Of a DNA stretch of 64,000 bases, positions 1,747 through 63,431 are shown one piece after another. The stretch comes from a virus, in IMG/VR virus record IMGVR_UViG_3300038443_001768; one strand, written 5' to 3'. Under the pieces are notes generated by a model, which had not been told where the DNA came from, searched no databases, and saw nothing but the letters and a program-made list of their open reading frames with translations. Both the position numbers and the translations under genes were made by a program. The first letter of the stretch is position 1. Every line of letters begins with the position of its first letter.

Positions 1747-2091
1747 ATGGGCTCTGAAGCATATTTTCCGGTAGGGACACGACTAACACACAACGAGACC
1801 GACGAGGTTCTGATCGTCACCGGCGGCGGCGATCAGTTGATCGTGTCGCCGGCCGAGTTCGGACCGACTCGAACGCTCGGCATCATTGAGGCGCGCCAGG
1901 ACTACACGGCCGATCTCCCCGAGGGCACACCAGTGGAGACGCCTCAGCAGGAGCGGGCTCGCCTCACGCCTGAGCAGATTTTCGCGAAGGCCGCTAGGGA
2001 CGCAGCCGCAGCGGGCGAGGTACCCCAGGGCCGCAGGGGACGCCGTAAGTCCGAGGGTGACGCGGAGCCGCGGCGTCAGGGCGGCGAGTAA
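1747..2091 (+). CDS. Hypothetical protein
   Basis: ORF with a TAGAAT -10 box just upstream of the ATG (leaderless). Confidence 0.6.
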   Translation: MGSEAYFPVGTRLTHNETDEVLIVTGGGDQLIVSPAEFGPTRTLGIIEARQDYTADLPEGTPVETPQQERARLTPEQIFAKAARDAAAAGEVPQGRRGRRKSEGDAEPRRQGGE

Positions 2092-2384
2092 TGGCTAAGC
2101 GTCGGATCGAGGACAAGAAGCGCGTCCGCCTCGTGAAGGCCATGCGCGTGACCCCGACACCGCTGATCGATCTCGTTGACTACGTCCGGCTACGCACGCG
2201 CTGCACGGCTGGACGCGCGCGCGCCGCGATCCTCGCTGGCGCGCTTACCGTTGACGGCCAGCCGATTGGGTTCGTAGAGGTCGACGACAAGGCTAAGAAG
2301 GACAACAAGATCAAGGTTCTGACGCAGTACGTGCGAGCCGATCTACGCGACCGGATCGTGGTGGTGAATCCTTCTGATTCGTAA
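2091..2384 (+). CDS. Putative S4-like RNA-binding domain protein
   Basis: LIDLVDYVRLRTRCTAGRARAAILAGALTVDGQPI resembles the S4 motif (RLD.YL....SR..A...I..G.V.VNG). Confidence 0.5.
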   Translation: MAKRRIEDKKRVRLVKAMRVTPTPLIDLVDYVRLRTRCTAGRARAAILAGALTVDGQPIGFVEVDDKAKKDNKIKVLTQYVRADLRDRIVVVNPSDS

Positions 2385-2439
2385 CATTCGTGCGCTGTGT
2401 TCGGCGTCATCGAGGCTGGTAGAAGAGTCACCGCAGGCG

Positions 2440-2760
2440 TTGGTGGACATGCTTGCTGGCGACGCCGCTCAGCGAGTCGGCCTGAGTGTTCGCCATTGGC
2501 GCAGCGGCGACATGGAAGACCCAGCGCCAACGCAGGGCGAGCGCGGCCTTGAGCCGGACAAGACCGGATGGGTTGACGAAGAGGAGCGCGCCATCTACGC
2601 GTCCGAACTAGGTGGACTCAGTGACACCGTCATGTTCCGTCTAGATCTTCGGCTGGACCTAGATCGTCTGCGGACGATGTCTGTGGCGCGTGCTGAGCAG
2701 CGAGCCCGCGCTCTCGCCGAGGTCAAGGCGTTGGAGTTCCTGGAAGGTTCGCTCCTGTGA
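2440..2760 (+). CDS. Hypothetical protein
   Basis: ORF overlapping the start of the resolvase gene. Confidence 0.55.
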   Translation: MVDMLAGDAAQRVGLSVRHWRSGDMEDPAPTQGERGLEPDKTGWVDEEERAIYASELGGLSDTVMFRLDLRLDLDRLRTMSVARAEQRARALAEVKALEFLEGSLL

Positions 2761-3260
2761 GGTGGCTGTCCGTCGACCCCGGCGAGGACACAGGTTGGGC
2801 TCTCTGGGAGGACGGCGACCTCGTCGATGCCGGCACAGAGAAGCTGTGGCCGTTCGGTGAGGCTGTCTACGCAGCAACGCACGAAGACGACATTGCCGTG
2901 CTGGAACTCGTCGGTGACGAGCTTGCCCTGAAGTTCAACGGCATCAAGCGTATTGTGTGCGAGGACTTTCGGATCTACCCATGGGAGGCCAAGAAGGGAA
3001 CCCTGAATTGGGACCAGGTTAGGACCGCGCGGCTTATCGGTGCACTAACCCTGATCTGTAAGGTGAAGGGCCTTGAGTGGGTTCTCCAAGGCGCAAAGAT
3101 CAAGGAACGCGCCGAGGCCGCCGGGGCGGAGTCGTTGTTCATGTCCCCGTTGAACGAAAATCGCCACGCCAATGACGCGATCCGGCACGGCGTCTACTAC
3201 TTGGCGATCGAGCGCGGCGCGCGGCCGGTCGAAATGGAGGGCGATGGTGCTAATGCGTAG
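2757..3260 (+). CDS. RuvC-like Holliday junction resolvase
   Basis: N-terminal SVDPGEDTGWA, central IVCEDF, C-terminal HANDAIRHG: the RNase H-fold RuvC catalytic D/E/D pattern. Confidence 0.8.
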   Translation: MRWLSVDPGEDTGWALWEDGDLVDAGTEKLWPFGEAVYAATHEDDIAVLELVGDELALKFNGIKRIVCEDFRIYPWEAKKGTLNWDQVRTARLIGALTLICKVKGLEWVLQGAKIKERAEAAGAESLFMSPLNENRHANDAIRHGVYYLAIERGARPVEMEGDGANA

Positions 3261-4107
3261 GGAGTACAGAAACCTCTACAGGCTGTGCCGCCCGCTGTCG
3301 TACGTCATGCCAGAGGCGGCACTGCGCTGGCTGCATCGCCATTGGAAGCTGGCCTCGGACGACACCGAGGACTGGAGTTTCTGGCTTGACGTCAGCTACG
3401 AACGCTACTGGAGAAGGAGTATCGAGCGGTGACTGAGTTTCGGTTGTGCTGGTCAGCGAGCAGTAACATCACCTTCCGCGGCGAGACCGACTGGGAGGTG
3501 TGGGACGACGAGGACGAATCTCCAGAGGTGTACTTCTACTCTCTTGATGGTCCTGGGCTCACCAACATGGCTAGAGGTCTCGGCGAGGTCTTGGAGGCCA
3601 GCGGTTTCGATTGGTGGGTGGAGACTCGATGATCTCCGGTAAGGTGCGCGGCGAATGCATTCACTTCGACTGCGCCACCGACGAAGAGATGACGTTGACG
3701 TGGATGGCGTTCTTCACCGAGGAGGCCGCCAAGGGCCTGGATTGCGACCGTTGTGGCCGGCCGCTCAACGAGGTACCTGATCCGTGATCTTCTTCGACAA
3801 CTGCGGATATGAACCAGTACCCGGCCTTGACGACTTCGTTGAGGCCGCGTACGCTCTATGTGGTGAGTCTCATCTCTTCCGACGCCGCCGGCTCGGCGGG
3901 CTGGCCGGTATTCGAATGGCCCCATCCGATATGGCAAGGTACGAACTCAACGCCGACATCTTTGATCTCAAGATCAAGGCCATCATGGACTCAGCGCCAC
4001 GCGGAGTTACCCTACTTTCGGATTACCTGTTCTGTCAGTGCGCGTGTCACAAACCAGGACTGCACGCAGTTCGCGGCGGCTGCGCTCACTGCACGATTCT
4101 GGGTTAG
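3253..4107 (+). other. Four small hypothetical genes (3253-3432, 3429-3632, 3629-3787, 3784-4107)
   Basis: Overlapping stop/start codons in a + strand operon. Confidence 0.55.
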
Positions 4108-4219
4108 TCAACGTGGCTGATCAAATCGTGTACAATACCGCTAACCCCATGCCGTTGAAGACAAACATGGAGTCAACGGTATCTCTCGACGAAGGAAGGG
4201 AGCAGAACCAGAGCCTCGG

Positions 4220-4471
4220 GTGCTGACCGAGGACGTGCAGGTAATCCTACGCCGCGTGGTCAGGCCGGATCAAGAAGATGAAGGAGATTCGGTAGCGACT
4301 ATTGCGGAGAAGGCAGACACATCGACTCGGACCGTGTATCGAGTCTTGGCCGGCACAACCAAGACCCTGTCACTAGACCTTGCGGACCGTTTGTGCATCG
4401 CCGCCGACGCGCACCTCTCAGAGTGTCGCCTGTCGTGGCCAGATGGTAGGGTCGAGCCCTACCTGTCCTGA
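4220..4471 (+). CDS. XRE/Cro-like helix-turn-helix protein
   Basis: SVATIAEKADTSTRTVYRVLAG...LSLDLADRL HTH signature. Confidence 0.7.
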   Translation: MLTEDVQVILRRVVRPDQEDEGDSVATIAEKADTSTRTVYRVLAGTTKTLSLDLADRLCIAADAHLSECRLSWPDGRVEPYLS

Positions 4472-4582
4472 TGCGGAGAGCCGACCTTTCCGAACCAACA
4501 CGGACCTCGGTAACACCGCTCCATTGCTGCGAAACAAGCCCTAATCAGGTCTTTTTGTCATTCACGGCGGTAAATTACGTGA

Positions 4583-5032
4583 ATGGCTCGAATCTCGAAG
4601 CTCGCTAACCCAGAATTCGCCAAGGCCGTCGCCGAGGCCTACGTGAACGGGATGTCTCGTGATGAGATGGCAGACGAGTTCGCCTGCCACAAGGACACCA
4701 TCACGATCTGGACGCGTGACCCACGCGTCCAGGCACACGTCTCTCGCCTCGCGCAGGAGCGCGTCAATCGCATCACGCGCAAGATCGACAAGGAGATCGA
4801 GGGCCGCCTCCAGGACGCCGAGGAGATGGACACTGAGGTTTTGCTGAAGATCCGCAAGGAGTTCCTCGGCAACGTCATCAAGCCAATCGAGGGTGCTGGC
4901 GCTGACCGTGCCGAGACTGTCTCGGAGACCATCAAGGCTGTCGAGGAATCGCCGGACCTCGCTGACGCGCTACAGCAGCTACTCCTGGGCGGCGGGCACA
5001 ACGCTACGCGCGAGCCCAACGCTGACGAGTAA
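4583..5032 (+). CDS. Putative terminase small subunit
   Basis: N-terminal HTH (GMSRDEMADEFACHKDTITIW), helical remainder, translationally coupled to the terminase large subunit. Confidence 0.6.
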   Translation: MARISKLANPEFAKAVAEAYVNGMSRDEMADEFACHKDTITIWTRDPRVQAHVSRLAQERVNRITRKIDKEIEGRLQDAEEMDTEVLLKIRKEFLGNVIKPIEGAGADRAETVSETIKAVEESPDLADALQQLLLGGGHNATREPNADE

Positions 5033-6639: not shown

Positions 6640-9353
6640 GTGACGAATTCAGAACAAAGCGACCGCCACAGTCTCGTCGATCGCGTGGCGAAAATGCTGT
6701 GGTTGTTCGACGGGGGCGAACCCGTCGCGGCGGCCGACGCCAGTCGCACCGAGGATGCCTACCGGGCGAGGGCGGTGATGGTCGTGGAGACCGTTCGTCG
6801 CTACGACGACGGCACGGAATGGGGGCCGCTACCCGAGTTCGATCTCGACGCGATGGACGCCCGCGAGGACGAGGAGACGCGACCGTCGGTGGACCGTGAA
6901 CGTCGCTGGGCGGCGTTCTGGAGCGCCAACGATGAGATCCCATATGACTGACGCATCGGGCCAGAACAGCAGGCCGGAGAGCGAGCGGTGAGCGTCCATC
7001 CCGCACTCCGGACGTGCGCCTGCGGCCACGTTGCGAACCACCATCTCGACAAGCTCGGCTGCCAGATCGCGGGGTGCCCGTGTCGTCGCTTCGACGGCCA
7101 GAACGTGTCGCGCGAGCAGCACCGGGCGACCATCGAAGAAGCGAACCGTCGTCTGCGCAAGGCGTGGGCGCAGCGCGACCGATACCGCGCTGCGTTGGAG
7201 CGCATTGAGTCGCACGGCGCGGGCGTCGCGGTCGAAATCGCGCGTGACGCTTTGGCCGAGAAGAGTAGGCCGGAGGGCTGAGCGCGTGGCCGACGGCCTC
7301 TTTGCGTCCGACGCCCGGCCTTGACCTTCCCGCCCAGCCCTGCTAGGGTTGTCGACATGACGCCAACGCGCACCTCTCCCCTGGTCGGTAAGACTGTCTC
7401 TTCTGTGCTCTTCGATGTCTTCGTCGAGAAGGCGCTCCCGTGGATCGATCCCAAAGAAGTTGACGAGATCCGCGAGCAGCACCGCGACAGCGAGGAAGAC
7501 CTCTACGTACGCGACGGTTTAGTCTACCGGCGGGTCGTCGCTGATCTTGTCATCTCCACCGACGACGGCAACGTCTACTACGTCTCCACGTGTGGCTGCT
7601 GCGGCGGGATTGGCGGCGAACTCGGTGTGGCGGCGGCGGTCCTCTGATGTCACGCATCGCGCTGCCTGTGACGTCATGCTACGGCGGAGACCGAGCCCTA
7701 CTTGATCGCCTCGGCCTGCTCACTGACGGTTACCCATTCTCAGAGTGGATGAGGCTTGGTCGCGTGGACTTCGACAACGACGCTAAAATCACCGTCTTCG
7801 TCCTTGCGCTGCCGGCCCAGACATGGGACTTCATCATCACACGTCCAGACGAGAACGGCGGACAGCCGAAGAGCTTCAAGCTCTCGACTGGAACCGGACG
7901 CTTCACTGAGTTCTGGCCATTGGCGGCCATGCTGGCGGATAACTTGGTCTCGGTTGAGGCGCTCTGATGGCTGCGTTGACCGCCGATGAGGCCGGCGAAA
8001 TCGTCGACCTGCTAGGCGCTGTGAGGAAGATGGACAAGGTTCGTCCTGACCCGATCCTTCTCTACGACTCAAACGGCGAGTACGTCGGGCAGATCAAGTA
8101 CGACACCCACAACGGCTACATGTACTACCTGCCGGGTGATCTTGGGGTGGACGAGTGAGCACTCTTGCCTGGGATGGCTACCACGGCCGCGAAGACGACG
8201 AACGACACAAGAACCACAACAACGTGACAGTCATACTGAACCCCCGTCCGTGCGATCGTTGCGGCCTTCCGGTTCCGTCAACCAACGACGCTGTCCTGCT
8301 CGACATTACACTCGGTCACGGCGACCCGCTGAGCATGCTGCTCGGTCGCCCGCGGCACTTGCTGCCGACCAGGTACTGCGAGGGGAGTCCCAGCCGCGCA
8401 CAGTACCTTGAGGGTCAACCGCGTGACCCTCGACCCGAGTACGCCTACAACGCCGACCATGAGGCCGCCATCAGCGAGGCGCACGAGCGTATGATCGAAT
8501 GGGCCGAGTCCTACGAGGAGCGGTTCCGTTGAAGGGAACCTGCGGCTCACAGGAATGGGCGTACGGCGACAACGGCGAGGTCATCGTTTACGGCACTTGC
8601 GGGCGTGAGCCGTTCCACGAGGGGCGGCACGTCGAATACGCCGATGAGGGCCGCCCGATCGCTGGGTGGTCCGACCTCTACTGGCGGCGCGCGCCTACTG
8701 AGTGGGAGCCCCGCGCCGCTGAACTAGCACAGGCTTTGCTGGACATCGCCGAAACCGCGATGCCTTCGACGTACTTTGCGACCGATTCACGTTGCCAGAT
8801 GGCGCGTCAGACCCTGGAGGTGTTGGGCTATGTCGACGACGAAGAATGACATCATCGAGGGCGCGCTGGAGATTCTGCGCGACCCCGAGCGCTGCACGAG
8901 GGGCGGCATGAGCCGGCGCAGCGAGGGTCGTTACTGTGCGGCTGGCGCGCTGCTTGAGTCTGCGCTAAACCTCGGCGTTGACCTCGATCACCATGTCGAC
9001 CGCGCCGTAATCAATCGCGCCGTGTTGGCCTTCATGTCCGGCAACCGCGAGCGCACGGTCGAGATACTTGAGGAGGCGTTCGAGTAGTGGGCTGTGTTCT
9101 CTGTGAAAGCCTGCTTTGTCGATGCCCACAACCGCCCCCTCCAGACCCTGATCTCGTAGCCTGGGCGGCTGTTGGTCGCTCCGGCATGTGTGTCCACTCA
9201 TCGACGGTTGAGGATTGCGCGGGCTGTCAGGTTCGTAACTTTCGCGCGGCTATCCGGCGGACAGCGCAGGATCTGATCGACATCGCTCACGACTATCACG
9301 TTCTAGATCCCCGCCGCCTTAGGGCGCGTCTCATCCTGGAGGAACTCAAATGA
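6640..9353 (+). other. Array of small hypothetical genes (6640-6951, 6988-7281, 7321-7647, 7647-7967, 7967-8158, 8155-8532, 8529-8849, 8830-9087, 9087-9353)
   Basis: Dense translationally coupled ORFs, several with CxxC pairs; no function assignable. Confidence 0.6.
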
Positions 9354-10525
9354 CCAGAACTGATCCCGCAGTCTTCAACCTGCCGGTGCAGAAGCTCCGC
9401 GACGGATACTATGCGGACGCGTACTTCAACCGTGCTCGTGAACTCCTCATCGCCAACGGGCGTCATCCTCGCGTCGTGATGCAGGTCTTCCAGCGAGAGC
9501 ACAGCTTCGCTGGTGGTGTCGACGAGGCCATCGCGATGCTGAAGCTCGGCGCTGGCGGCTACTACAAGTACACAGGCTGCATGTGGGACGCGCCCGGCGA
9601 GTGCGAGCCCTCTTGCCCGTGTCCGTATCGCTGGCGGCGGGTACCGGCCGGAGGCGACGGCGTCGCTTGGCGTGACGGCTGGGGCGATCTAACCGTGAAG
9701 GCGCTTCACGAGGGCGACGAGATCTCGCCATGGGAGCCGGTGCTTCAGATCGAGGGCGACTACACGCTGTTCGCGCATCTGGAGACCACGATGCTGGGCG
9801 TGATGGCGCGCCGCAGCCTCGTGATGCGTAACGTCAAGGAGGCCATCGCGGCGGCGAACGGAAAGCCGATTTGGTTCTTCCCCGCGCGACACGACCACTG
9901 GGCAGTTCAAACCGGTGACGGAATCGCAGCGCACCAGGCCGGCATCGAAGGCGTCTCTACCGACGCCGGAGCCTCATGGTGGGGCGGACGCGGCATGGGC
10001 ACGATCCCGCACGCCTTGATTGCCGCCTATGGCGGCGACACCGTCGCGGCGGCGCGCGAGTTTGCTCAACGCTACAAGGACTCCATGAACGTCACCGTGC
10101 TCGTCGACTTCCACAACGACTCCGTGGGCACAGCGCTCCGGGTTGCGGAGGAACTTGGCGACGACTTGTGGGGCGTGCGCCTCGACACCTCCAGCAACCT
10201 CGTCGACTATTCGATCGCCAGCGATCTCGATTACGGCGAATACTCACCGACTGGCGTCAATCCTCGGCTCGTCGAGCTTGTCCGGGAGGCGCTCGACGAC
10301 GAGGGCTTCGAGCATGTCAAGATCGTCGTCTCCGGAGGCTTCAAAGCCGCCAAGATACGCGAATTCGAGCGCCTCCAGGTGCCCGTCGATGCCTACGGTG
10401 TGGGAAGTTCACTGATCCGCGGGTCCAACGACTACACCGCCGACATCGTCATGACGGACAACGAGATGTGCGCAAAGGTCGGCCGTTGGGTGCGCGATGA
10501 CTCACGCCTGGAGGCCGTGAAATGA
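9350..10525 (+). CDS. Nicotinate phosphoribosyltransferase-like enzyme (type II PRTase)
   Basis: YADAYF, FFPARHDH, GMGTIPHAL, VLVDFHND, GVRLDTS, IVVSGGF, AYGVGS, DYTADIV, CAKVGR motifs of the NAPRTase/QPRTase fold. Confidence 0.85.
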   Translation: MTRTDPAVFNLPVQKLRDGYYADAYFNRARELLIANGRHPRVVMQVFQREHSFAGGVDEAIAMLKLGAGGYYKYTGCMWDAPGECEPSCPCPYRWRRVPAGGDGVAWRDGWGDLTVKALHEGDEISPWEPVLQIEGDYTLFAHLETTMLGVMARRSLVMRNVKEAIAAANGKPIWFFPARHDHWAVQTGDGIAAHQAGIEGVSTDAGASWWGGRGMGTIPHALIAAYGGDTVAAAREFAQRYKDSMNVTVLVDFHNDSVGTALRVAEELGDDLWGVRLDTSSNLVDYSIASDLDYGEYSPTGVNPRLVELVREALDDEGFEHVKIVVSGGFKAAKIREFERLQVPVDAYGVGSSLIRGSNDYTADIVMTDNEMCAKVGRWVRDDSRLEAVK

Positions 10526-13154: not shown

Positions 13155-13473
13155 ACGAGTACTGCATCTGACGCGCGACGATTTCCGGTGGGACTACTAT
13201 CGTGCCAGCGGCGCTGGCGGCCAGAACCGCAACAAGCGCGATACCGCTGTTCGGTGTACGCATGAGCCGTCCGGCGCGGTTGGTAACGCTGCCGACGAAC
13301 GAACGCAGGGCAAGAACCGTAAGCTGGCGTTCCAGCGCTGCACCTCCGACCCTGCGTTCCGTCGCTGGCTTGCCGTCGAGCACGCAAGGGTCGTCCTGGG
13401 GCGCGAGACCTGGCTGGATCAACAAATGCGCCCCGAGAATCTCATCATCGAGTATGGACCATTCCCCGACTAG
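13147..13473 (+). CDS. Stand-alone class I peptide chain release factor (RF-1/GGQ) domain; ArfB/PrfH-like
   Basis: [25 protein letters not shown]...[12 protein letters not shown] catalytic domain-3 signature; AAGGAG SD before GTG 13147. Confidence 0.9.
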
Positions 13474-49347: not shown

Positions 49348-49352
49348 TCGTA

Positions 49353-49425: not shown

Positions 49426-49429
49426 TTGA

Positions 49430-49501
49430 ATGCGGGACTCGGGTTCGAACCGAGCCGATGAGCTTCAAAGGCTCACGTGCTGCCAGCTACACCATCCCGC
49501 A
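49430..49501 (-). tRNA. tRNA-Gln(UUG)
   Basis: U1-A72; loop CTTTGAA. Confidence 0.88.
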
Positions 49502-49515: not shown

Positions 49516-49537
49516 ACTCTAGCATAGTCTCGTGACA
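49516..49537 (-). promoter_or_regulatory. Promoter of tRNA array 1
   Basis: TGTCA-N8-TGCTAGAGT; same motif precedes arrays 2 and 3. Confidence 0.6.
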
Positions 49538-49970: not shown

Positions 49971-50020
49971 AAGGAACTGTAGCACATGTCGAGGGGTGTG
50001 TGTCAAGGCCGAGACGGAAA

Positions 50021-50708: not shown

Positions 50709-50768
50709 GCCGCTAGTATGGCAGCTTCGGGCGTTGCAGTCCAGAGGACGACGTGGTACGCTCCCTCA

Positions 50769-52190: not shown

Positions 52191-52597
52191 CCACCGAGCT
52201 TCTTAGCGGCGACAGGTCTGCTGTTGAGGAGGCGGCGCGGAACATAGAACAAGCCGCGCGCAACCGTTTCGATGCTGGACATGTCTACATGCTTGAGTCG
52301 TCATCAGACAGAGCATATAAAGTCGGATACTCGGTCTCACCGATTGACAGACTCTACGCAATACGCAAGCAGGCCAACGATAAGTCAATCTCCTATGTGG
52401 GCTCGATTAGGGGGGCTCTTCGTCTCGACGAATATGCGATCCACCGAGAACTTGACGAGCTTGGATTGCGCTGGAGCGGCCGCTATTTAGGCACGTTCGA
52501 GTGGTTTCATGCGACGGCGGAGCTTGATGTTTTGGCTGACGTGCTTCGCGGTCTGTCCATCGAACGTAGAAACGCGCGAGGCTTCAGCTACTCTTGA
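52187..52597 (+). CDS. GIY-YIG-like (T5orf172/Mug113) nuclease domain protein
   Basis: GHVYML...YKVGYS..P.DRL, E..IH..L, EWF motifs. Confidence 0.75.
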   Translation: MTTELLSGDRSAVEEAARNIEQAARNRFDAGHVYMLESSSDRAYKVGYSVSPIDRLYAIRKQANDKSISYVGSIRGALRLDEYAIHRELDELGLRWSGRYLGTFEWFHATAELDVLADVLRGLSIERRNARGFSYS

Positions 52598-55021: not shown

Positions 55022-55045
55022 AAAGGCCGCCCTCGGGCGGCCTTT
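55022..55045. terminator. Bidirectional terminator
   Basis: AAAGGCCGCCC...GGGCGGCCTTT. Confidence 0.75.
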
Positions 55046-55051: not shown

Positions 55052-55136
55052 CGGAGAGACAGGGATTCGAACCCTGGAAGGTGTGACCCTTACGCGCTTT
55101 CCAGGCGCGCCCATTCGGCCTCTCTGGCACCTCTCC
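55052..55136 (-). tRNA. tRNA-Ser(GGA)
   Basis: Long variable arm; loop CTGGAAA. Confidence 0.92.
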
Positions 55137-55139
55137 TGA

Positions 55140-55211
55140 AGTCGCGGAGCGGAATCGAACCGCTGTAAACGGGGTTGCAGCCCGTTGCCTAAGCCACTCG
55201 GCCACCGCGAC
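55140..55211 (-). tRNA. tRNA-Cys(GCA)
   Basis: Loop CTGCAAC; U73. Confidence 0.92.
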
Positions 55212-55215
55212 GGAG

Positions 55216-55302
55216 CGGAGAGACAGGGATTCGAACCCTGGAGGCTTTGACACCTACTCGGCTAGCAACCGAGCGCATTCGGCCGGACTCTGCCACCTCT
55301 CC
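55216..55302 (-). tRNA. tRNA-Ser(GCU)
   Basis: Long variable arm; loop TTGCTAG. Confidence 0.92.
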
Positions 55303-55342
55303 TGGCACCCGATCGCGGCCACGTGGACGGCGTCGGGCTGAG

Positions 55343-55426
55343 CGGAAGCAGAGGGATTCGAACCCCCGACGGTGGTTAGCCGCAGCCGCTTTCAAGGCGG
55401 TGTCCTCGACCAGCCGGACTACTTCC
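55343..55426 (-). tRNA. tRNA-Ser(UGA)
   Basis: Long variable arm; loop CTTGAAA. Confidence 0.9.
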
Positions 55427-55431
55427 GTGAG

Positions 55432-55518
55432 CGGATGGTAGAGGATTCGAACCTCTGAGGGTGTTACCCCTACTCGCTTTCGAGGCGAGCGCATTCAACC
55501 AGGCTCTGCCAACCATCC
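55432..55518 (-). tRNA. tRNA-Ser(CGA)
   Basis: Long variable arm; loop CTCGAAA. Confidence 0.92.
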
Positions 55519-55522
55519 GAAA

Positions 55523-55604
55523 TGACGCGCCAAGGACTCGAACCTTGAATGCCGTGAGGCGGCCGGGTTACAGCCGGCTGGGTGCTCCCGCTCCCACACG
55601 CGCC
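55523..55604 (-). tRNA. tRNA-Tyr(GUA)
   Basis: Long variable arm; loop CTGTAAC. Confidence 0.88.
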
Positions 55605-55614: not shown

Positions 55615-55636
55615 ACTGTAGCAGATCTACGCGACA
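55615..55636 (-). promoter_or_regulatory. Promoter of tRNA array 2
   Basis: TGTCG-N8-TGCTACAGT. Confidence 0.6.
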
Positions 55637-56157
55637 AGCGAGCAGACGCCTGTGTCTGGCTCTACGACCTCGATCTCAAAGGTGTTCAGATGCGGAGTCG
55701 CGCGAGCCTCTGCCTCCTCGCGGGCCACGCGCGCCGCTACCTGCTCGGCCGTCTCAGGAATCGGCCAGTTGCCGTTCTCGTCCTTGAGAGCGGTTAGGTC
55801 TTCGCCCAACTGCTCCAACATGAAGAACAATAGCGGTGTATGCGCCTTCTTCTGATTGCAGTCGAAACATGAGCCTGATCGATTTGTCCACGAGCCCTTT
55901 GATCCACCTAGCGCCTTCGGCTGGACGTGGTCAACGGTAGTTCCGCGCAGGCACGCGCAGTATGCACATGGGTCGCGACGGATGATGTGGTCCCAAACGG
56001 CGCGAGATGCGTGCGGCCGGCGCAGTAGGCCGCCAAGACGCGCTCCGGATGGGACGCGAGCGTGGATTAGCTCGTCACCGCACGCAGGGCAAGACTTACC
56101 GCGGAGTTCCGCAGTGAAGCCGGCCTTGCACGAGGAGCACCAGATTAGCTGTGCCAC
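55627..56157 (-). CDS. HNH endonuclease
   Basis: RRDPCAYC...TVDHVQPKALGG...N....CFDCNQKK, plus N-terminal Zn ribbon. Confidence 0.85.
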   Translation of the reverse strand: MAQLIWCSSCKAGFTAELRGKSCPACGDELIHARVPSGARLGGLLRRPHASRAVWDHIIRRDPCAYCACLRGTTVDHVQPKALGGSKGSWTNRSGSCFDCNQKKAHTPLLFFMLEQLGEDLTALKDENGNWPIPETAEQVAARVAREEAEARATPHLNTFEIEVVEPDTGVCSLVA

Positions 56158-57058: not shown

Positions 57059-60000
57059 CTACGAACCGGCCAGCAAGTCGATGACTTCGCCGCTCGCCAC
57101 GTAGGGAATCACATGTCCCGACGCGACAGCAGGAAATACGTGACCGGAGAGTGGGGGCTCATGATGAACGTACGCGATCACAACCGGCCCAGAGATAATG
57201 ATCGCATCCGACAGCACAAACGACTGAGCCAGCACACGCGCCAGCGACTGATGAAAGACCAGCGAGTCGACAAGTACATTCACCTCAGAAACAGAGAAGA
57301 CGCCGCCGCTGGTGCCGGCCACGTTGTCGACCACAACGATTGAGCCGTTCACCGAGCGCACAATCGAAACGGCCCCCGAGAGCGCATCCGCCAACGCCGC
57401 GGTCTCCGCCAGCGCGCGGCTATCAGCGATCAGCGACCCAGCCGCATCAGACAAAAACACCGATGTTGTCGCTGTTCGTCCCAGCGACAAAAGACCCAAT
57501 AGTGTGTCGGCGACGGACAATGACTCAGACGCCGGCCGCGGCAAAACCACGCCCGACGCGGTTACGTCGGCTACGACGACTGACTCATCAAGCGAGCGCG
57601 GGAATGCGCGCACAACGGCATCGCCCAGGGCTAGTGAATCAGAAAGCGATCGAGAGTCACCCACCGACCTCGACAAGCTCTCTGAGAGTGCCGCGGTCTC
57701 CGTGATAGCGAGCGAGTAGGCTCGCTGAATAGTCGCGACACCGAAGGTCTCGGCGGACGAGATCGCAGTCATGTAGAGAGTGCTCGTCGACTGCGCTACA
57801 TCGATCTGGTTGTAGTAGATCCCGTTTGAATCCGAGTACACGTACGGGATCAGTACTTCATTAGAGCGGGTGCCGTTGGTGACGTTGATGCGATTGAATG
57901 TTCCCGCATGCGCGGCCGAACCTAGCCCCAGGGCGTTTGAGAACGACCCCACACCTGGGGTTCCTGAGTAGATTCTCAGGTCGCGGTCGGAGTCCGAGAT
58001 GTGAACTACGACCTCGGTGTCGCGAGCGCCGTTCACCTCGGCGTTTGCGAGGTTCGCTAGGGTCGTGTCCGCGTATGAGTCGCCGGCCGATCCGACATTT
58101 GAACGAATCGTGAACGTCGGCGAATCCGCTGGAGCCCATTCGAGTACGTTCGTATTACCGGCGGAGGTCGTAGACGTGCCCGACGCTCTCCTCCGGTAGG
58201 CGGCGCGCATCCTGATCACTGATGACGAGTCCGCATACATGACCGGCGTCGCCATGTCTAGAGCGGCGTAGAAGTTGTTGGGGCCGTCGATTGACTGTGG
58301 GCCGGTACCACTGATACGGGCGTCGGCGGCGATGAAGGAGTCGGCCGCGCTCAAAACCCGGTAATAGAGGCCGTCGGCTGAGCCACCGGCGGTGGCCTTC
58401 TCGACGAAGAAGTAGGCGCGGTCTGAGTTGTCGATCGCGATTCCAACAACCAGGGCGTCGGCCTGGCCTGCGACTTCCTGCGCCACGAGTACGTCGCGTG
58501 TCCACGTACCGGAGTTCGTCCGCTTAGCGTAGTAGGTGCGCCAATTTCCGGTGGCCGTTTTGCCGTAGGCGATGATGGAGTCGCCGTTTGAGCGCACACC
58601 AAGATAGACACCGACGCCGGTATTGAGGCTGGAGATCCCCGAGTCCTCATCAAGTGTCCATGTGTCTGACGAGGTGTCGAAGCGCGCGTACCTGATTACG
58701 TTGTCGCTCTGTGCGTACGCGACATGAAGGATCGAGCCGACGATCTTTGTATCGACGGCGTCGATGGTCGTGCCGGCCGTGGTTACGGTGCGCTCGCCGG
58801 ACGTGTTGACCGCCGACCACGTGCCCTGCATCGGATCTGCGGCCTTATAGACCCTGACGCTGCGCGAACCCGACACGTCACGGTAGGCGGCCACATAGGT
58901 GGCTCCGTTTGGTGCAACCCACGGACCGCAAGTGCCCGGCTTCGACGACAGCTTGATCGTTGAATCACCAAAGCTGTTCGGTGGGGCAGTGACGCGCGTC
59001 GCGTAGACGTCAGACTTGGGCCGTAGCGTAAACGGTCCGCCTGAGTAATAGGCGCTGCTGTAGCTCTGTGCGGCGACCGCGTTGTCCTCGACGCAGAAGA
59101 CGAGACCGCTGCCGCGATGTCCACGCGTGCTCGTGTAGCGCACCCATTCGCCGTACACGAACGACCCCATGTTGCCGGTGCCGATGTTCTCGGTCGTCCA
59201 GCCTCCGGACGCACCCTCGGTGAACGAGAATGCCATCGTTGGCAAGCCGCTCGACGCGGAGCGGTACGCCATGCCAAGGAGCCCGGGGGCCAACTGCGTC
59301 AGCGCCGGGCGGCCCGACGCAGAGGTCAGACAACTCGAAGCGTCGGGCGTCCATGTTGAGCCGTCGTCGGTAGAGATAGCCCTGAAGAACCGAAACGGCG
59401 AAACAGTATCAGAGCGCATCATGCAGATGATGATGCGGCTGTTATCGCTGCGCGTGTAGACGCACAGGTTGGGCTCAACACGCTCGGTCGTCGCGTCCTG
59501 AGCGATCACGCCGATGTCGGTCCACGACACGCCGCCGTTGGTTGAACGGGCGAGTCGACTGTAACCAATGGTTGATGCTCCGTCGCCGCCGTAGGCGGCC
59601 AGCAGCAGCGTACCTGACCCGTCGGGGATACACACGGGAGGGCCGCTGACGTCGGTGCCCCAGGCGCTACCAGGAAGCGAGGTGTTGGGGTTGGTGGCGG
59701 TGAACGAAAACGGAACCTGGACCGGGTTGCTCCACGTGAACCCGTTGTCGTCGCTGTAGAGCGTCCACGCCGTGTACTCAAGGGTCGTCTTGCTGACGCG
59801 CGTAGCGCTGAGTACGAGCCGGTTGTCGTGCGAGCCTCCCTCGACCTTAGCGAGGCCGAGGTCGAGCCACCCATAGTTGGAATCCGAGCGAAGCTGTGTG
59901 ATCTCAACCGGACTACCCCACGTGGCGCCCTCGTTGGTTGAGCGCAGGTAGTACGAGTACTGATCGAGCGCCAGGTGATGCGTCGCATTGCCGTAGGCGG

Positions 60001-60124
60001 CCAACAGGTCGCCGTTTCCGCACTGGACGCCACCACCGAAGGCGTTGTACTGTTTGCCGGAGAGGTCCTCGTGAAGCTTTGTGTTTGCCCCCCAGCGTGT
60101 CGGGCTGACTTGCTGAACGCTCAT
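57059..60124 (-). CDS. Large virion protein with BNR/Asp-box (sialidase-like propeller) domains
   Basis: Asp boxes STNEGATW, SDDNGFTW, STNGGVSW, STDDGSTW; C-terminal ~18-aa 'R.L.ES...AD' repeats. Confidence 0.75.
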   Translation of the reverse strand: MSVQQVSPTRWGANTKLHEDLSGKQYNAFGGGVQCGNGDLLAAYGNATHHLALDQYSYYLRSTNEGATWGSPVEITQLRSDSNYGWLDLGLAKVEGGSHDNRLVLSATRVSKTTLEYTAWTLYSDDNGFTWSNPVQVPFSFTATNPNTSLPGSAWGTDVSGPPVCIPDGSGTLLLAAYGGDGASTIGYSRLARSTNGGVSWTDIGVIAQDATTERVEPNLCVYTRSDNSRIIICMMRSDTVSPFRFFRAISTDDGSTWTPDASSCLTSASGRPALTQLAPGLLGMAYRSASSGLPTMAFSFTEGASGGWTTENIGTGNMGSFVYGEWVRYTSTRGHRGSGLVFCVEDNAVAAQSYSSAYYSGGPFTLRPKSDVYATRVTAPPNSFGDSTIKLSSKPGTCGPWVAPNGATYVAAYRDVSGSRSVRVYKAADPMQGTWSAVNTSGERTVTTAGTTIDAVDTKIVGSILHVAYAQSDNVIRYARFDTSSDTWTLDEDSGISSLNTGVGVYLGVRSNGDSIIAYGKTATGNWRTYYAKRTNSGTWTRDVLVAQEVAGQADALVVGIAIDNSDRAYFFVEKATAGGSADGLYYRVLSAADSFIAADARISGTGPQSIDGPNNFYAALDMATPVMYADSSSVIRMRAAYRRRASGTSTTSAGNTNVLEWAPADSPTFTIRSNVGSAGDSYADTTLANLANAEVNGARDTEVVVHISDSDRDLRIYSGTPGVGSFSNALGLGSAAHAGTFNRINVTNGTRSNEVLIPYVYSDSNGIYYNQIDVAQSTSTLYMTAISSAETFGVATIQRAYSLAITETAALSESLSRSVGDSRSLSDSLALGDAVVRAFPRSLDESVVVADVTASGVVLPRPASESLSVADTLLGLLSLGRTATTSVFLSDAAGSLIADSRALAETAALADALSGAVSIVRSVNGSIVVVDNVAGTSGGVFSVSEVNVLVDSLVFHQSLARVLAQSFVLSDAIIISGPVVIAYVHHEPPLSGHVFPAVASGHVIPYVASGEVIDLLAGS

Positions 60125-61476: not shown

Positions 61477-61581
61477 GTCTCTGTTTCTTGTTCCTGGAAT
61501 CGACCCATTTTGCGGCGAATGTCTCATCAACAGTACCCGACGGTTCGCCATCAACGGCTCTGGATGTGGTACGCTTCCTGG

Positions 61582-62070
61582 ATGCGTCCAGTCATGTACA
61601 TCGTCGCCAACGAGGGGCTCGGCATGTCGCCAGGCAAGCTCGCTGCCCAGGCCGCCCATGCCGCCGTAGAGGCCTACCGGCTATCGTGTCCGATCCCGGT
61701 ATGGCACCCAGACCAAGACAAGCTGCGCTTCGAAGGACGCGAGGTCGTGCAGGAGTGGTACAAGGGCGGCCACTACACGAAGATCGTCCTCGGCGCTCGC
61801 GACTCTCAACACCTGTTGACGCTGGAGCGCTACATCAAGGAGCGTGGATTCAAGACCGCGTTGATCATCGATGAGGGTCGGACAGAGATCGAGCCACACT
61901 CGCCGACAGCGATCGGCGTCGAGATCGTCGACAAGGACGACGAGCACACATGGGCAACGTTTGGGTCGATCAAGCTCTTCGGGCAGGCCAGCGGTCCGCC
62001 CAAGCGAGTCGACTACGACGCCGCGACTGTGAGCCGCTACGGAAAGTTCTTCAACGCGCTCAAGAGCTAG
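61582..62070 (+). CDS. pth2: Peptidyl-tRNA hydrolase, Pth2 family
   Basis: MYIVANEGLGMSPGKLAAQAAHAA, TKIVL, IIDEGRTEIEP.SPTAIG. Confidence 0.92.
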   Translation: MRPVMYIVANEGLGMSPGKLAAQAAHAAVEAYRLSCPIPVWHPDQDKLRFEGREVVQEWYKGGHYTKIVLGARDSQHLLTLERYIKERGFKTALIIDEGRTEIEPHSPTAIGVEIVDKDDEHTWATFGSIKLFGQASGPPKRVDYDAATVSRYGKFFNALKS

Positions 62071-62208: not shown

Positions 62209-62232
62209 AAAAGCCCCCATCTCAGGGGGCTT
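62209..62232. terminator. Bidirectional terminator
   Basis: AAGCCCCC-loop-GGGGGCTT. Confidence 0.7.
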
Positions 62233-62239: not shown

Positions 62240-62313
62240 TGGAGCCGGCTGGATTTGAACCAGCGACCTCACGGGCTTCAACCGTCCGCTCTACCGGGCT
62301 GAGCTACGACTCC
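62240..62313 (-). tRNA. tRNA-Phe(GAA)
   Basis: Cloverleaf; loop TTGAAGC. Confidence 0.88.
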
Positions 62314-62388
62314 GAGCCCCGGGCTCGCACCGGGAACCATCAGGCTCGTAGTACCTGACCTTTGGACGCCCTTGGCGTCGGTGCATTG
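62314..62388 (-). ncRNA. tRNA-sized structured element / degenerate tRNA
   Basis: GACGCC/GGCGTC, TCAGG/CCTGA and CCCGG-TGCGAGC-CCGGG hairpins; no canonical acceptor stem. Confidence 0.4.
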
Positions 62389-62390
62389 AG

Positions 62391-62462
62391 AGCAGGCGAC
62401 GGGGCTCGAACCCGCTCTTGAGGCTTGGAAGGCCGCCGTGCAACCGGTAACACTTCACCTGC
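62391..62462 (-). tRNA. tRNA-Gly(UCC)
   Basis: Loop CTTCCAA; U73. Confidence 0.88.
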
Positions 62463-62466
62463 TTGA

Positions 62467-62538
62467 AGCTCCCGCAGAGACTTGAACTCTACCATCTCGG
62501 GTACGAACCGAGCGCAACGCCATCTTTGCTTCGGGAGC
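62467..62538 (-). tRNA. tRNA-Thr(CGU)
   Basis: Loop TTCGTAC. Confidence 0.85.
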
Positions 62539-62673
62539 GAACAGGCCGGCGCTCTACCGTTGAGCTACAAGCGGGCGAACCATCAAGGAGCGACCTCGAA
62601 GTAATCCGACTCGACGTGCACGTCGAGAAGGGTTGCCGCCAGGGCGGATTCGAACCACCAACCTCCGGCCGTA
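62539..62673 (-). ncRNA. Circularly permuted tRNA(Asn)-like RNA / YrlA-like tRNA mimic
   Basis: On the - strand the tRNA 3' half (GCCGG-AGGTT-GGTGG TTCGAAT CCGCC-CTGGCGG; 62672-62635) precedes the 5' half (CCGCTTG-TA-GCTC AACGGTA GAGC-G-CCGGC-CT-GTT; 62574-62540), joined by a 60-nt linker. Confidence 0.8.
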
Positions 62674-62674
62674 A

Positions 62675-62748
62675 AGCCGACTGTGGGACTCGAACCCACG
62701 ACATTCGTCTTACAAGGACGACGCTCTAGCCATCTGAGCTAAGTCGGC
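62675..62748 (-). tRNA. tRNA-Thr(UGU)
   Basis: Loop CTTGTAA. Confidence 0.9.
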
Positions 62749-62751
62749 GGA

Positions 62752-62823
62752 AGCTGCGACCGAGAATTGAACCCGGGACTCGACCGTACCAAGGTCGCGT
62801 GTTACCACTAGCACCATCGCAGC
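62752..62823 (-). tRNA. tRNA-Thr(GGU)
   Basis: Loop TTGGTAC. Confidence 0.9.
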
Positions 62824-62827
62824 GAAG

Positions 62828-62901
62828 TGGTGCCGACAGGAATCGAACCTGCGTTCTTCGGGGTAAAAGCCCGCTGCAAGGCCAACGTTTGCTACGACAC
62901 C
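62828..62901 (-). tRNA. tRNA-Lys(UUU)
   Basis: Loop CTTTTAC. Confidence 0.88.
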
Positions 62902-62904
62902 GTA

Positions 62905-62979
62905 TGCCCCGGGCAGGAATCGAACCTGCGTGCCAGTGGGTAAGAGCCACTTTCTAAAGCCAGCTTTTGTTACCGAGGC
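62905..62979 (-). tRNA. tRNA-Lys(CUU)
   Basis: Loop CTCTTAC; weak D stem. Confidence 0.82.
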
Positions 62980-62984
62980 GAGGA

Positions 62985-63057
62985 AGTGGAAGACGGGACT
63001 CGAACCCGCGGCCTTCTCCATGGCAAGGAGACGCTCTACCAACTGAGCTACATCCAC
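62985..63057 (-). tRNA. tRNA-Gly(GCC)
   Basis: Loop TTGCCAT. Confidence 0.92.
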
Positions 63058-63062
63058 GAAAG

Positions 63063-63136
63063 TTGGCCCTCTGGGACTCGAACCCAGGACCTCCCGCGTA
63101 TCAGACGGACGCTCTAACCAACTGAGCTAAGGACCA
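63063..63136 (-). tRNA. tRNA-Ile(GAU)
   Basis: Loop CTGATAC. Confidence 0.9.
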
Positions 63137-63142
63137 TTGAAG

Positions 63143-63214
63143 TGCTCGATGTAGGATTCGAACCTACGACCCCACGCTTGTAAGGCGCGTGCTCTCCCGC
63201 TGAGCTAATCGAGC
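63143..63214 (-). tRNA. tRNA-Val(UAC)
   Basis: Loop CTTACAA. Confidence 0.92.
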
Positions 63215-63218
63215 GAAG

Positions 63219-63291
63219 TGGAGGATACGGGACTTGAACCCGTGACTTCCAGCATGCCATGCTGGCGCTCTCCCAACTGAGCTAATCCCCC
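63219..63291 (-). tRNA. tRNA-Ala(GGC)
   Basis: G3:U70; loop ATGGCAT. Confidence 0.92.
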
Positions 63292-63357
63292 ATGGCTGGT
63301 TGATAACGGTGACTAGCTCACCGAGTCCGGAGTTAGGGCCTCCGGACTAGGAACCCA
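63292..63357 (-). ncRNA. Three-way-junction structured element between the two Ala tRNAs
   Basis: GGTT/AACC closing stem; AGTCCGGAG-GCCCTAA-CTCCGGACT (9 bp) and CGGTGA-GCTAG-TCACCG (6 bp). Confidence 0.45.
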
Positions 63358-63431
63358 TGGACCAGGAGGGATTCGAACCCTCAACCCTCTGCGTGCAAAG
63401 CAGGCGCTCTACCAATTGGAGCTACAAGCCC
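63358..63431 (-). tRNA. tRNA-Ala(UGC)
   Basis: G3:U70; loop TTTGCAC. Confidence 0.9.

Follow-up and report, generated by a model that had tools for sequence, protein, structure and literature searches.

Three tRNA arrays under a common class of promoter

The window, i.e. the whole stretch of 64,000 nucleotides analysed here, covers ~46% of a ~140 kb phage genome (60% GC) whose uncultured source looks siphovirus-like and probably infects an actinobacterium. ARAGORN recovered 36 tRNAs for 19 amino acids, distributed in three minus-strand arrays. Array 1 (47745-49501, −), also recovered through Rfam tRNA matches, carries 18 canonical tRNAs and a sub-threshold tRNA-Trp in an order identical to that of the close relative G002. 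Array 2 (55052-55604, −) encodes Tyr, four Ser and Cys tRNAs, and array 3 (62240-63431, −), found again in the close relative G001, encodes 12 tRNAs. Usual inter-tRNA spacers span 3-12 nt and each array is closed by an intrinsic terminator (a terminator-like hairpin at 47707-47728 for array 1, 55022-55045 for array 2 and 62214-62228 for array 3). The initial annotation had counted 37 tRNAs covering all 20 amino acids, of which 36 tRNAs and 19 amino acids were retrieved at the default setting; the 37th, a non-canonical tRNA-Trp(CCA) (48235-48306, −), was called only at 90% of the default threshold (-ps90). This element displays a 3-bp D stem and an anticodon stem mismatched at its top, and its Rfam match is limited to tRNA-Sec (25 bits, E 0.044); it is 100% conserved in G002. 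Altogether, the tRNA set decodes 57 of the 61 sense codons, representing 98.4% of the codon usage of 15 phage genes.

Each RNA unit is preceded by the motif TGCTASAGT, present in 4 copies in the window for 0.41 expected, every one of them with an RNA gene 11-42 nt downstream. Genome-wide in G001 (139.5 kb), the 5 copies all lie just upstream of stable-RNA genes. In the window, the first copy (TGCTACAGT, 49976-49984, −) is an extended -10 motif with TTGACA upstream and a manA-like RNA 11 nt further on, and the second (TGCTAGAGT, 49516-49524, −) precedes the tRNA-Gln of array 1 by 15 nt; motif searches placed the others ahead of array 2 (55615-55623) and array 3 (63473-63481). Read from sequence, these are SigA-type promoters with an extended -10 motif. 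The same search of the window found no copy upstream of rtcB, cca, pth2 or the GGQ gene, so that co-regulation of the proteins with the RNAs is unsupported, which counts against the translation kit proposed below.

Structured RNAs within and beside the arrays

At least five non-tRNA structured RNAs had been proposed in or next to the arrays, and the comparison with relatives agrees: five gaps of 66-165 nt and the region upstream of array 1 contain conserved hairpin elements, three of them with compensatory changes. Checked as possible degenerate tRNAs, none of the gap elements proved to be one. In array 1, the RNA at 48985-49111 (−, fold z-score -2.2) forms two hairpins with complementary loops (CUGCCA and UGGCAG) followed by two more hairpins; compared with G002, the first hairpin shows 3 compensatory pairs and the stem of the second is wholly replaced, while both loops are invariant. 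Array 3 holds a 76-nt multi-hairpin element between tRNA-Gly and tRNA-Phe (62314-62389, −, fold z-score -2.3), whose middle stem is swapped in G001 for a different pairing stem between invariant flanking helices, and a two-hairpin element between both tRNA-Ala genes (63292-63357, −, fold z-score -2.8), with hairpins essentially invariant in G001 and a variable 3' flank. The same array includes a permuted tRNA-like element (62539-62674, −), read directly from the sequence and kept in G001, in which the 3' half (T arm and acceptor strand) precedes a palindromic linker and the 5' half (acceptor strand and D arm); it received no tRNA call. The status of the 88-nt spacer between tRNA-His and tRNA-Trp (48307-48395, −) is uncertain, since its conservation in G002 reaches 99% (89% for the whole array) but its fold z-score is only -0.8, with no covariation. 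A 39-nt hairpin (55303-55341) is missing from the compared relative.

Upstream of array 1 and under its own promoter lies a divergent manA-motif RNA (RF01745-like, 49699-49965, −), detected by cmscan over the full model length with conserved core strings (35.9 bits, E 1e-7). Its orthologues in G001 and in the more distant relative G003 score 40.2 bits, all three being below the RF01745 gathering score of 55.2, and at least 4 compensatory pairs distinguish it from the G001 copy. A small RNase P-like RNA also occurs in the relatives and in the cultured Microbacterium phage Big4.

Predicted enzymes for tRNA finishing, RNA repair and peptide release

Profile searches confirmed five of the protein families proposed initially, with intact catalytic motifs. 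The class II CCA-adding enzyme with an HD domain (50718-52190, +) matches Pfam PolyA_pol (9e-18), PolyA_pol_RNAbd and HD, and displays the motifs GGSVRD, DAD, RRD and H...HD; its best NCBIfam match, the multifunctional CCA addition/repair protein (5e-35), falls under the cut-off. CCA is encoded in only ~1 of the 37 tRNAs, leaving the other ~36 as an obvious substrate pool for this enzyme. Pth2 peptidyl-tRNA hydrolase (61510-62070, +) matches Pfam PTH2 (2.8e-23) and phrog_1866, shows the DEGRT motif and scores 1.8e-19, under cut-off, against the NCBIfam Pth2 model; its true start is probably ~20-27 codons downstream of the annotated one. By contrast, the S4-like protein also listed at first, which we took to be the product of 2091-2384 (+), was not borne out: it matched nothing in Pfam, PHROG, NCBIfam or PDB, found only two homologues among 5.8 billion proteins, and gave an unusable AlphaFold model (pLDDT 48), leaving an ESM Atlas language-model lead (0.89 to S4 clusters).

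The RtcB RNA ligase (16379-17725, −; Pfam RtcB 5e-58) contains the motifs DIGCG, GSGNH, GSRGFGH and HGAGR and a CxxC...CxxC insertion near its C terminus. Its proposed operon partner, the RlaP nucleotidyltransferase (14721-15449, −; Pfam RlaP 3.7e-29, GS...DxD motif), is indeed on the same strand, with a start overlapping the preceding small ORF. Two small ORFs of 99 and 69 aa occupy the interval (15446-16093, −), neither with a Pfam or PHROG match. According to a preprint (10.64898/2025.12.29.696909), RlaP extends the 3' ends of damaged RNA by 1-2 NMP, and over-damaged tRNA cannot regain aminoacylation without it. Convergent with this unit, in G001 as in the window, is the gene for the stand-alone GGQ protein (13006-13473, +; Pfam RF-1 7.5e-17, phrog_3122 4.8e-25), whose PDB matches are restricted to domain 3 of RF1, RF2 and PrfH. 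Sequence and profile comparison revealed no basic tail like that of ArfB and no counterpart of PrfH's codon-recognition-like domain, which counts against a rescue role.

This adjacency raises the possibility that rtcB, rlaP and the GGQ gene form a PrfH-RtcB-like unit for ribosome repair, functionally apart from the tRNA arrays, in which the GGQ protein would free the peptide from ribosomes with cut rRNA and RtcB would religate the rRNA. The GGQ domain does match PrfH (PDB 7sa4 and 9mor; TIGR03072, 1e-14), RtcB also matches the PrfH-linked model TIGR03073, and an RFH-RtcB-NTase neighbourhood has been described, with RFH and RtcB linked to RNase-based conflicts (PMC6514570). However, the ~50 residues before the GGQ domain are too few for a PrfH recognition domain, the NCBIfam scores of the GGQ protein are all far under the equivalog cut-offs (54.6 vs 166.65 bits), and the general RtcB model outscores the PrfH-linked one, so we regard this reading as doubtful.

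Conservation and modularity of the kit

All five proteins and their layout are kept in G001 and G002, at ~90% nucleotide identity to the window. G003 retains the tRNAs, the CCA enzyme and Pth2 but lacks RlaP and the RF-1 protein, its RtcB match being broken or very weak, which indicates a modular set, not obligatorily integrated, whose parts can be lost separately. Across a panel of 12 phage records, the five-protein set was complete only in the lineage of the window, ten other phages carrying subsets such as RtcB with RlaP, or RlaP with RF-1 and Pth2. Of the integrated toolkit proposed initially, the joint retention of the whole protein set in G001 and G002 is supported. The kit genes are spread over at least 60 kb and at least four transcription units, which also counts against the translation kit proposed below.

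In the extreme, nothing would unite these genes: the tRNA arrays would be selfish cassettes moving with homing endonucleases and the remainder independent accessory genes of the sort gathered by large phages. An HNH endonuclease gene (55627-56157, −; PHROG HNH families, down to 3.6e-9) lies directly 5' of array 2, a putative T5orf172 (GIY-YIG-like) homing endonuclease gene (52187-52597, +; Pfam 1e-5) adjoins cca, HNH genes also sit inside the arrays of phages Skinny and Big4, homing endonucleases beside tRNA arrays are reported elsewhere (PMC8421152), and the subsets vary between phages. Such a loose accumulation is nonetheless quite improbable given the full set and layout shared with G001 and G002, the single promoter class common to all RNA genes, and a CCA enzyme that fits CCA-less tRNAs.

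A probable modular translation kit

Our results suggest that this phage combines a near-complete tRNA set with enzymes predicted to finish, mend and recycle tRNAs and to release stalled ribosomes, a fuller assortment than the piecemeal kits of large phages. A modular translation kit independent of the host tRNA pool is the best overall explanation, and one that we consider reasonably probable. The supply, legible in the sequence, comes from three terminator-bounded minus-strand operons with SigA-type promoters, providing 36 canonical tRNAs and the odd tRNA-Trp. The CCA-adding/HD enzyme would complete or restore their 3' ends. As known from the biochemistry of their families, RtcB could reseal cut tRNA, and possibly rRNA, with 2',3'-cyclic-phosphate and 5'-OH ends, with RlaP putting back one or two lost nucleotides. 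The GGQ protein may release the peptides of stalled ribosomes, and Pth2 may recycle dropped-off peptidyl-tRNA. The embedded RNAs, including the manA-motif RNA and the hairpin pair with complementary loops, would be transcribed together with the tRNAs or next to them, and set free by tRNA-processing cuts. Phage protein synthesis would thereby be shielded against the depletion or cleavage of host tRNAs or ribosomes, whether this stems from host anticodon nucleases or toxins or from the phage itself taking over the cell.

A counter-defence purpose, as first proposed, is plausible, and independence from the host tRNA pool in general fits equally well. A plainer version would dispense with defence altogether: the kit would provide translational autonomy or codon supply in hosts whose tRNA pool differs or is collapsing, the gain lying in host range and late gene expression, and the repair enzymes would handle routine RNA damage only. 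The near-complete codon coverage, unbiased towards the few known nuclease targets, the housekeeping-type promoters of the RNA genes and the repair-free kit of G003 all point that way. Yet RtcB and RlaP are typical of conflict-related RNA repair (PMC7824862, PMC6514570), RlaP prefers damaged RNA (preprint 10.64898/2025.12.29.696909), and supply alone leaves the rescue factors GGQ and Pth2 unexplained, making this version unlikely. For the modular kit preferred here, phage tRNA supply and RNA repair against tRNA-cleaving defence is a concept already in the literature (PMC7824862, PMC6514570), so that the kit represents an unusually complete variant and not a new kind. The RNAs provide the most novel leads, namely the manA-motif RNAs within phage tRNA operons and the small RNase P-like RNA.

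Comparison with known systems

The kit follows the same logic as the systems with which jumbo phages repair RNA and supply tRNAs (Iyer et al. 2021, PMC7824862; Burroughs and Aravind 2016). These combine tRNAs of their own with a CCA-adding enzyme, RlaP and RtcB/Rnl ligases, a combination that a published model ties to RNase-based conflicts and proposes as a counter to host RNase effectors (PMC7824862). The ~140 kb genome is however not that of a jumbo phage, and Pth2 and the stand-alone GGQ factor are additional. Bacterial PrfH (RFH)-RtcB operons likewise place a GGQ hydrolase gene beside rtcB and a Pol-beta nucleotidyltransferase gene (PMC6514570), but the GGQ protein of the window lacks the recognition domain and scores far under the PrfH cut-off, and its nucleotidyltransferase belongs to RlaP proper, the one linked to RFH having been described as a member of another family (PMC6514570). 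A cellular system with a long tRNA operon resembles the window through its HNH endonuclease neighbour and through being functionally tied to rtcB and to translational stress; it is stress-induced via direct-repeat promoters, whereas the RNA promoter motif of the window is not common to rtcB.

That subsets occur in large actinophages, as noted at the outset, is matched by Skinny, ScottMcG and WXIN. The siphoviral cluster M mycobacteriophages (Bongovirus, e.g. Skinny OP297551) carry a large tRNA array with HNH genes, as does the window, with RtcB at the array end and an RlaP-type nucleotidyltransferase elsewhere. Skinny has ~22 tRNAs, no match to the CCA enzyme, Pth2 or RF-1, and neither the manA-like nor the RNase P-like RNA, and the window's major capsid protein shares no more than ~30% identity with mycobacteriophage ones. 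Cluster C1 mycobacteriophages (Bixzunavirus, e.g. ScottMcG) and phage WXIN share RlaP and a PTH2-family gene with the window; their RF-1 domain 'peptide chain release factor' belongs to the same PHROG as the GGQ protein, with an alignment limited to residues 55-150 of the window ORF, and RtcB and the CCA enzyme are unmatched.

Finally, the manA-like RNA matches the manA motif (RF01745) over its full length, with the conserved core strings, the long-range pairing and most of the helices. This motif, known from cyanophages and marine bacteria, is an orphan riboswitch candidate. The RNA of the window differs by insertions of 74 and 25 nt, by its high-GC phage context, and by its own promoter followed by tRNAs rather than a protein gene. 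The motif of P-SSM2 lies upstream of purL with no tRNAs nearby, whereas the bona fide manA copies of cyanophages S-CREM1 and S-SSM7 adjoin tRNAs, as in the window.

Genomic context of the arrays

The window (GC content of 60%) encodes a terminase, a portal protein, a prohead protease, an HK97-type capsid protein, a tail tube protein and a putative tape measure protein of 1831 aa, and its terminase, portal, capsid and tail genes identify it as part of a tailed phage. As the longest contig encoding one of its proteins measured 142 kb, the window would represent slightly less than half of the genome. No close DNA relative was detected among 50,697 deposited phages, for which only tRNA genes matched: about 100 bases (roughly 1%) of a 9-kb query aligned, at 80% identity, over annotated tRNA genes. 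The capsid protein shared at most about 30% identity with mycobacteriophage capsids, and a metagenome scan with the CCA protein as query recovered no relatives. The only relatives returned by the IMG/VR scan were G001 (139,534 bp, rated 99% complete, with DNA ~85-93% identical to the window over the aligned tRNA-array region) and G002, of the same lineage as the window. Comparisons also covered G003, a more distant 160-kb relative with a Pth2 55% identical to that of the window and a tmRNA, and G004, a 56.5-kb IMG/VR fragment.

Three other genes deserve mention. A class II-like ribonucleotide reductase gene (36770-38689, minus strand) lies between the portal and prohead protease genes, an unusual site inside the structural module. 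A BNR/sialidase-like repeat domain is present in a 1021-aa protein encoded between arrays 2 and 3 (57059-60124, minus strand), possibly a tail enzyme or one involved in receptor binding. Finally, a nicotinate phosphoribosyltransferase-like gene (9350-10525, plus strand; NCBIfam NF005529, 331 bits, just below the cut-off of 378) suggests that the phage salvages NAD, which could be relevant to NAD-depleting defences.

A nearly complete tRNA set

The initial annotation had counted 37 tRNAs covering all 20 amino acids. With default settings, ARAGORN retrieved 36 of them, distributed in three minus-strand arrays of 18 (array 1, 47745-49501), 6 (array 2, 55052-55604) and 12 genes (array 3, 62240-63431), while the 37th, a 72-nt tRNA-Trp(CCA) at 48235-48306, was absent by default and called only with the threshold at 90% (-ps90). 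The Rfam tRNA model gave no match to this gene (limit E=1). Its sequence, unchanged in G002, has a defective anticodon stem and a D stem of 3 bp, the acceptor stem, anticodon loop and T arm being normal. With this caveat, the initial count of 37 tRNAs for 20 amino acids stands. Rfam supported 32 tRNAs at gathering score, and tRNA-Pro in addition at a permissive threshold. Standard wobble rules allow the set to decode 57 of the 61 sense codons, the unread ones (UUA, AUA, CCU and CCC) accounting for 1.6% of codons in 15 secure genes. An encoded CCA end is clear in tRNA-Glu(UUC) only.

Two other tRNAs are atypical. A tRNA-Arg(GCG) (48474-48547, minus strand) replaces the usual bacterial ACG species, so that A34 deamination would not be needed for CGY decoding. 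One of the two tRNA-Met(CAU) (47826-47906, minus strand) measures 81 nt owing to additional bases ahead of the T arm and obtained the second-lowest Rfam score (39.8 bits); it could be an initiator, an elongator or an Ile2 tRNA.

Predicted enzymes of RNA repair and ribosome rescue

Profile searches bore out five of the six protein families initially assigned to the tRNA supply, repair and rescue toolkit. The CCA-adding/HD enzyme (50718-52190) displays PolyA_pol head, RNA-binding and HD domains, the latter scoring exactly at the Pfam cut-off (22 bits), together with GGxVRD, DxD and RRD motifs. All NCBIfam equivalogs fell below their cut-offs, with CCA addition/repair and actinobacterial CCA models scoring best, above PcnB, and the protein is a predicted class II CCA-adding enzyme with an HD domain. 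Adjoining array 3, Pth2 (61510-62070) matched PF01981 (82.7 bits against a cut-off of 23) and carries the D-x-G-x-T motif as DEGRT; its NCBIfam equivalog matches were below cut-off.

RtcB (16379-17725, minus strand) scored 197.7 bits with PF01139 (cut-off 27) and contains the DIGCG, GSGNH, GSRGFGH, HNH and HGAGR motifs, which we take to form the metal-binding and His-GMP active site. A zinc-ribbon-like CxxC...CxxC insertion (about residues 330-375) directly follows the HGAGR motif, and the best phage relative of this protein was that of Sinorhizobium phage AP-16-3 (47% identity). The rtcB gene lies 930 nt upstream of rlaP (14721-15449; PF10127, 102.6 bits against 23), whose product harbors the Pol-beta GS...DxD motif as GSRAYGTNHADSDHD. 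The two genes share a strand and are separated by two small ORFs, the start of rlaP overlapping the stop that precedes it. Convergent with rlaP, the gene of the stand-alone GGQ/RF-1 protein (13006-13473) encodes the GGQ tripeptide and matched PF00472 at 61.8 bits (cut-off 35).

The sixth member, a candidate S4-like protein (taken as 2091-2384), could not be confirmed, with no sequence match in Pfam, PHROG, NCBIfam or PDB. The ESM Atlas gave only a lead to S4 clusters (0.89), a single-sequence AlphaFold model was not usable (pLDDT 47.7), and the homologue search returned two proteins only.

Distribution of the kit among phages

Among the 50,697 phage records, tblastn detected matches to RtcB in 646, to RlaP in 630, to the CCA enzyme in 371 and to the GGQ protein in 256, of which 205 were mycobacteriophages. 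The ten organism names listed as most frequent for the CCA enzyme did not include Mycobacterium and corresponded mostly to Gram-negative hosts. Pth2 gave no phage match at 1e-5 by tblastn; its rarity in phages was nevertheless rejected, since PTH2 HMM matches occur in ScottMcG, WXIN and CcrMagneto.

Combinations of these families were resolved by HMM searches on a panel of 12 whole phage records, which were picked from the hits and are biased accordingly. G001 encodes all five (PTH2, CCA, RtcB, RlaP and RF-1), a set encountered in this panel only in the lineage of the window. The other records carry PTH2, RlaP and RF-1 (ScottMcG and WXIN), CCA, RtcB and RlaP (Big4), CCA and RlaP (Atuin), RtcB and RlaP (Skinny and Cucurbita), RtcB with a weak RlaP match containing a stop (Weasels2), PTH2 and RtcB (CcrMagneto), PTH2 and CCA with a broken or weak RtcB (G003), RtcB alone (AP-16-3) or none of the five (S-CREM1), the families not named being absent in each case. 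Because the panel was chosen from hits, it illustrates the modularity of the kit and the rarity of the full set, not a statistical association. The sole RtcB match of G003 (136922-137086, locus L006) covers 35 model positions in a frame broken by two TGA and one TAA, and might reflect gene decay, an interrupting intein or intron, or chance similarity.

Structured RNAs embedded in the tRNA arrays

Usual spacers within the arrays measure 3-12 nt, and the additional RNAs occupy long gaps. In array 1, a pair of hairpins with mutually complementary 6-nt loops (48985-49111) was compared with G002, in which stem 1 shows three compensatory pairs and stem 2 is replaced outright while both loops are identical. 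Array 3 contains a multi-hairpin element (62314-62389), in which the middle stem gives way to another pairing stem in G001, a two-hairpin element (63292-63357), nearly invariant in G001, and a permuted tRNA-like element (62539-62674) kept in G001, made of a tRNA 3' half followed, after a palindromic linker, by a tRNA 5' half. The reading of these halves as a working tRNA-Asn was rejected: their joined ends would produce an 11-nt loop, G001 and the window disagree at the would-be U33 position, and RtcB does not use the 3'-OH and 5'-P termini that RNase P and RNase Z generate. A further gap segment (48307-48395) is highly conserved, with no structural evidence, and a 39-nt hairpin (55303-55341) is missing from G001. 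Relaxed ARAGORN searches found no further degenerate tRNA or tmRNA in any gap or flank, and none of the elements above proved to be a degenerate tRNA.

Upstream of array 1, a manA-like RNA (49699-49965) matched the whole RF01745 model (positions 1-192; 35.9 bits, E 1e-7). Its score and those of its counterparts in G001 and G003 (40.2 bits each) are below the Rfam gathering threshold of 55.2. Core strings are nonetheless kept, most helices pair, at least 4 compensatory pairs separate the window from G001, and the model yielded 0 matches in 14 control genomes. The announced count of at least five structured RNAs in or next to the arrays is accordingly a fair one. In G003, the manA-like RNA has a tRNA on either side. 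Bona fide manA RNAs directly adjoin tRNA genes in two of the three cyanophages checked: in S-CREM1 (OP535465, 10215-10429) the RNA is flanked by tRNA-Leu and tRNA-Asn, and in S-SSM7 (NC_015287, 151363-151563) it abuts tRNA-Gly, the third, in P-SSM2 (NC_006883, 142837-143034), being ahead of purL. Used as a blastn query, the S-CREM1 RNA matched only itself.

Small RNase P-like RNAs in other phages

Beyond the window, small RNase P-like RNAs (~220-325 nt) with recognisable P1-P4, CR-I and CR-V were identified in G001, G003 and Microbacterium phage Big4, at scores of 28-51 bits, below the Rfam threshold. The G001 match (locus L013, 1501-1804) is full-length and sub-threshold (28 bits with the type A model; 38 bits, E 3e-9, with type B), with CR-IV also recognisable. 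It is preceded by the TGCTAGAGT promoter that also precedes the tRNA arrays, with no tRNA close by, at a site corresponding to ~9 kb beyond the end of the window in its own genome. The G003 RNA (locus L012, 1501-1825; 39 bits) is inside a tRNA array, with a tRNA at 3 nt, and that of Big4 (ON637770, 91779-91999; 51 bits, E 5e-16) fills an unannotated gap between two tRNA-Arg genes, with rtcB 2 kb away. In G004 (locus L037, ~12390), the conserved CR-I string occurs between two tRNAs, as a motif match that was not model-scored. No report of a phage-encoded RNase P RNA was found in the open-access papers searched.

A promoter motif shared by the stable RNAs

The promoters of the arrays, missed by a generic promoter scan because of their 19-nt spacing, were recovered through k-mers shared between upstream regions. 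This comparison revealed an extended -10 element, TGCTASAGT, associated with a -35-like hexamer at constant spacing. The window holds 4 copies for 0.41 expected (0 of 100 shuffles reached four), all on the minus strand and 11-42 nt upstream of the manA-like RNA and of arrays 1, 2 and 3. G001 holds 5 copies in 139.5 kb, all on the minus strand, at the four sites of the window and directly upstream of the RNase P-like RNA. As a reversed control pattern gives 4+4 matches in this genome, it is the placement of these copies, not their count, that is informative. The motif was not found ahead of rtcB, cca, pth2 or the GGQ gene.

Strong intrinsic terminators (55022-55045 and 62214-62228, minus strand) with a common tail, TTTCGTCGTTCT, close arrays 2 and 3, and the array 3 stem shows compensatory changes relative to G001; the terminator of array 1 is weaker.

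Judging from their position and shared promoter, the extra RNAs may take part in the toolkit. We tentatively propose a dedicated stable-RNA regulon, in which promoters of the TGCTASAGT class would drive the three tRNA operons, the manA-motif RNA and also a minimised RNase P ribozyme located 9 kb outside the window. In that case, the manA-motif RNAs would have arisen within phage tRNA operons and would act in trans rather than as metabolite riboswitches, and certain phages would supply an RNase P RNA of their own for the processing of their tRNA arrays. The other gap RNAs, namely the hairpin pair with complementary loops and the permuted tRNA-like element, would likewise be functional components, acting for instance as decoys or as substrates of the ligase. 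Taken jointly, we give these proposals a little less than an even chance.

Comparison with known systems

The S4 protein excepted, the joint presence of these components in the window is real, and the proposed mechanism is the best available reading of it, with counter-defence as an inferred purpose. Phage tRNAs and RNA repair enzymes are now viewed as answers to tRNA-cleaving bacterial defences. In jumbo phages, tRNAs combined with RtcB or Rnl ligases, RlaP and CCA enzymes have been described as a response to host RNases (PMC7824862), so that the counter-defence proposed initially is a known hypothesis, of which this phage represents a new and unusually complete instance. The protein kit is in this respect a fuller version of something already known. 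By gathering supply, end repair, break repair, peptidyl-tRNA recycling and ribosome rescue, this mid-sized phage offers a compact model in which to ask which of these steps matter.

New findings are most to be expected from the RNA components. The embedded RNAs may outweigh the protein kit in importance, giving a concrete genomic context to the orphan manA motif and pointing to phage-encoded RNase P-like RNAs, testable in the cultured phage Big4 (host Microbacterium foliorum). In phages, GOLLD and ROOL RNAs often lie near tRNA genes. These large structured RNAs surfaced in the literature on tRNA arrays and phage genomes (PMC12286853), and tRNA arrays of cyanobacteria adjoin homing endonucleases and are co-regulated with rtcB (PMC8421152). 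RlaP adds 1-2 nucleotides to damaged RNA ends (preprint 10.64898/2025.12.29.696909).

The GGQ protein belongs to a phage family whose members in mycobacteriophages of clusters C1 and M bear the annotation "RF-1 peptide chain release factor", and its matches are limited to domain 3 of RF1, RF2 and PrfH. In ArfB (YaeJ), the GGQ domain is followed by a basic C-terminal tail probing the empty mRNA channel, whereas the last 45 residues here are not rich in lysine or arginine, and the ArfB model scored 36 bits (cut-off 100) over 34 residues only. The protein also differs from PrfH (RFH), since only ~50 residues precede its GGQ domain, with no codon-recognition-like domain, and the equivalog TIGR03072 gave 54.6 bits against a cut-off of 166.65. 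It does share with PrfH the rtcB neighbourhood of its gene, as in the RFH-RtcB-nucleotidyltransferase neighbourhood described in bacteria (PMC6514570).
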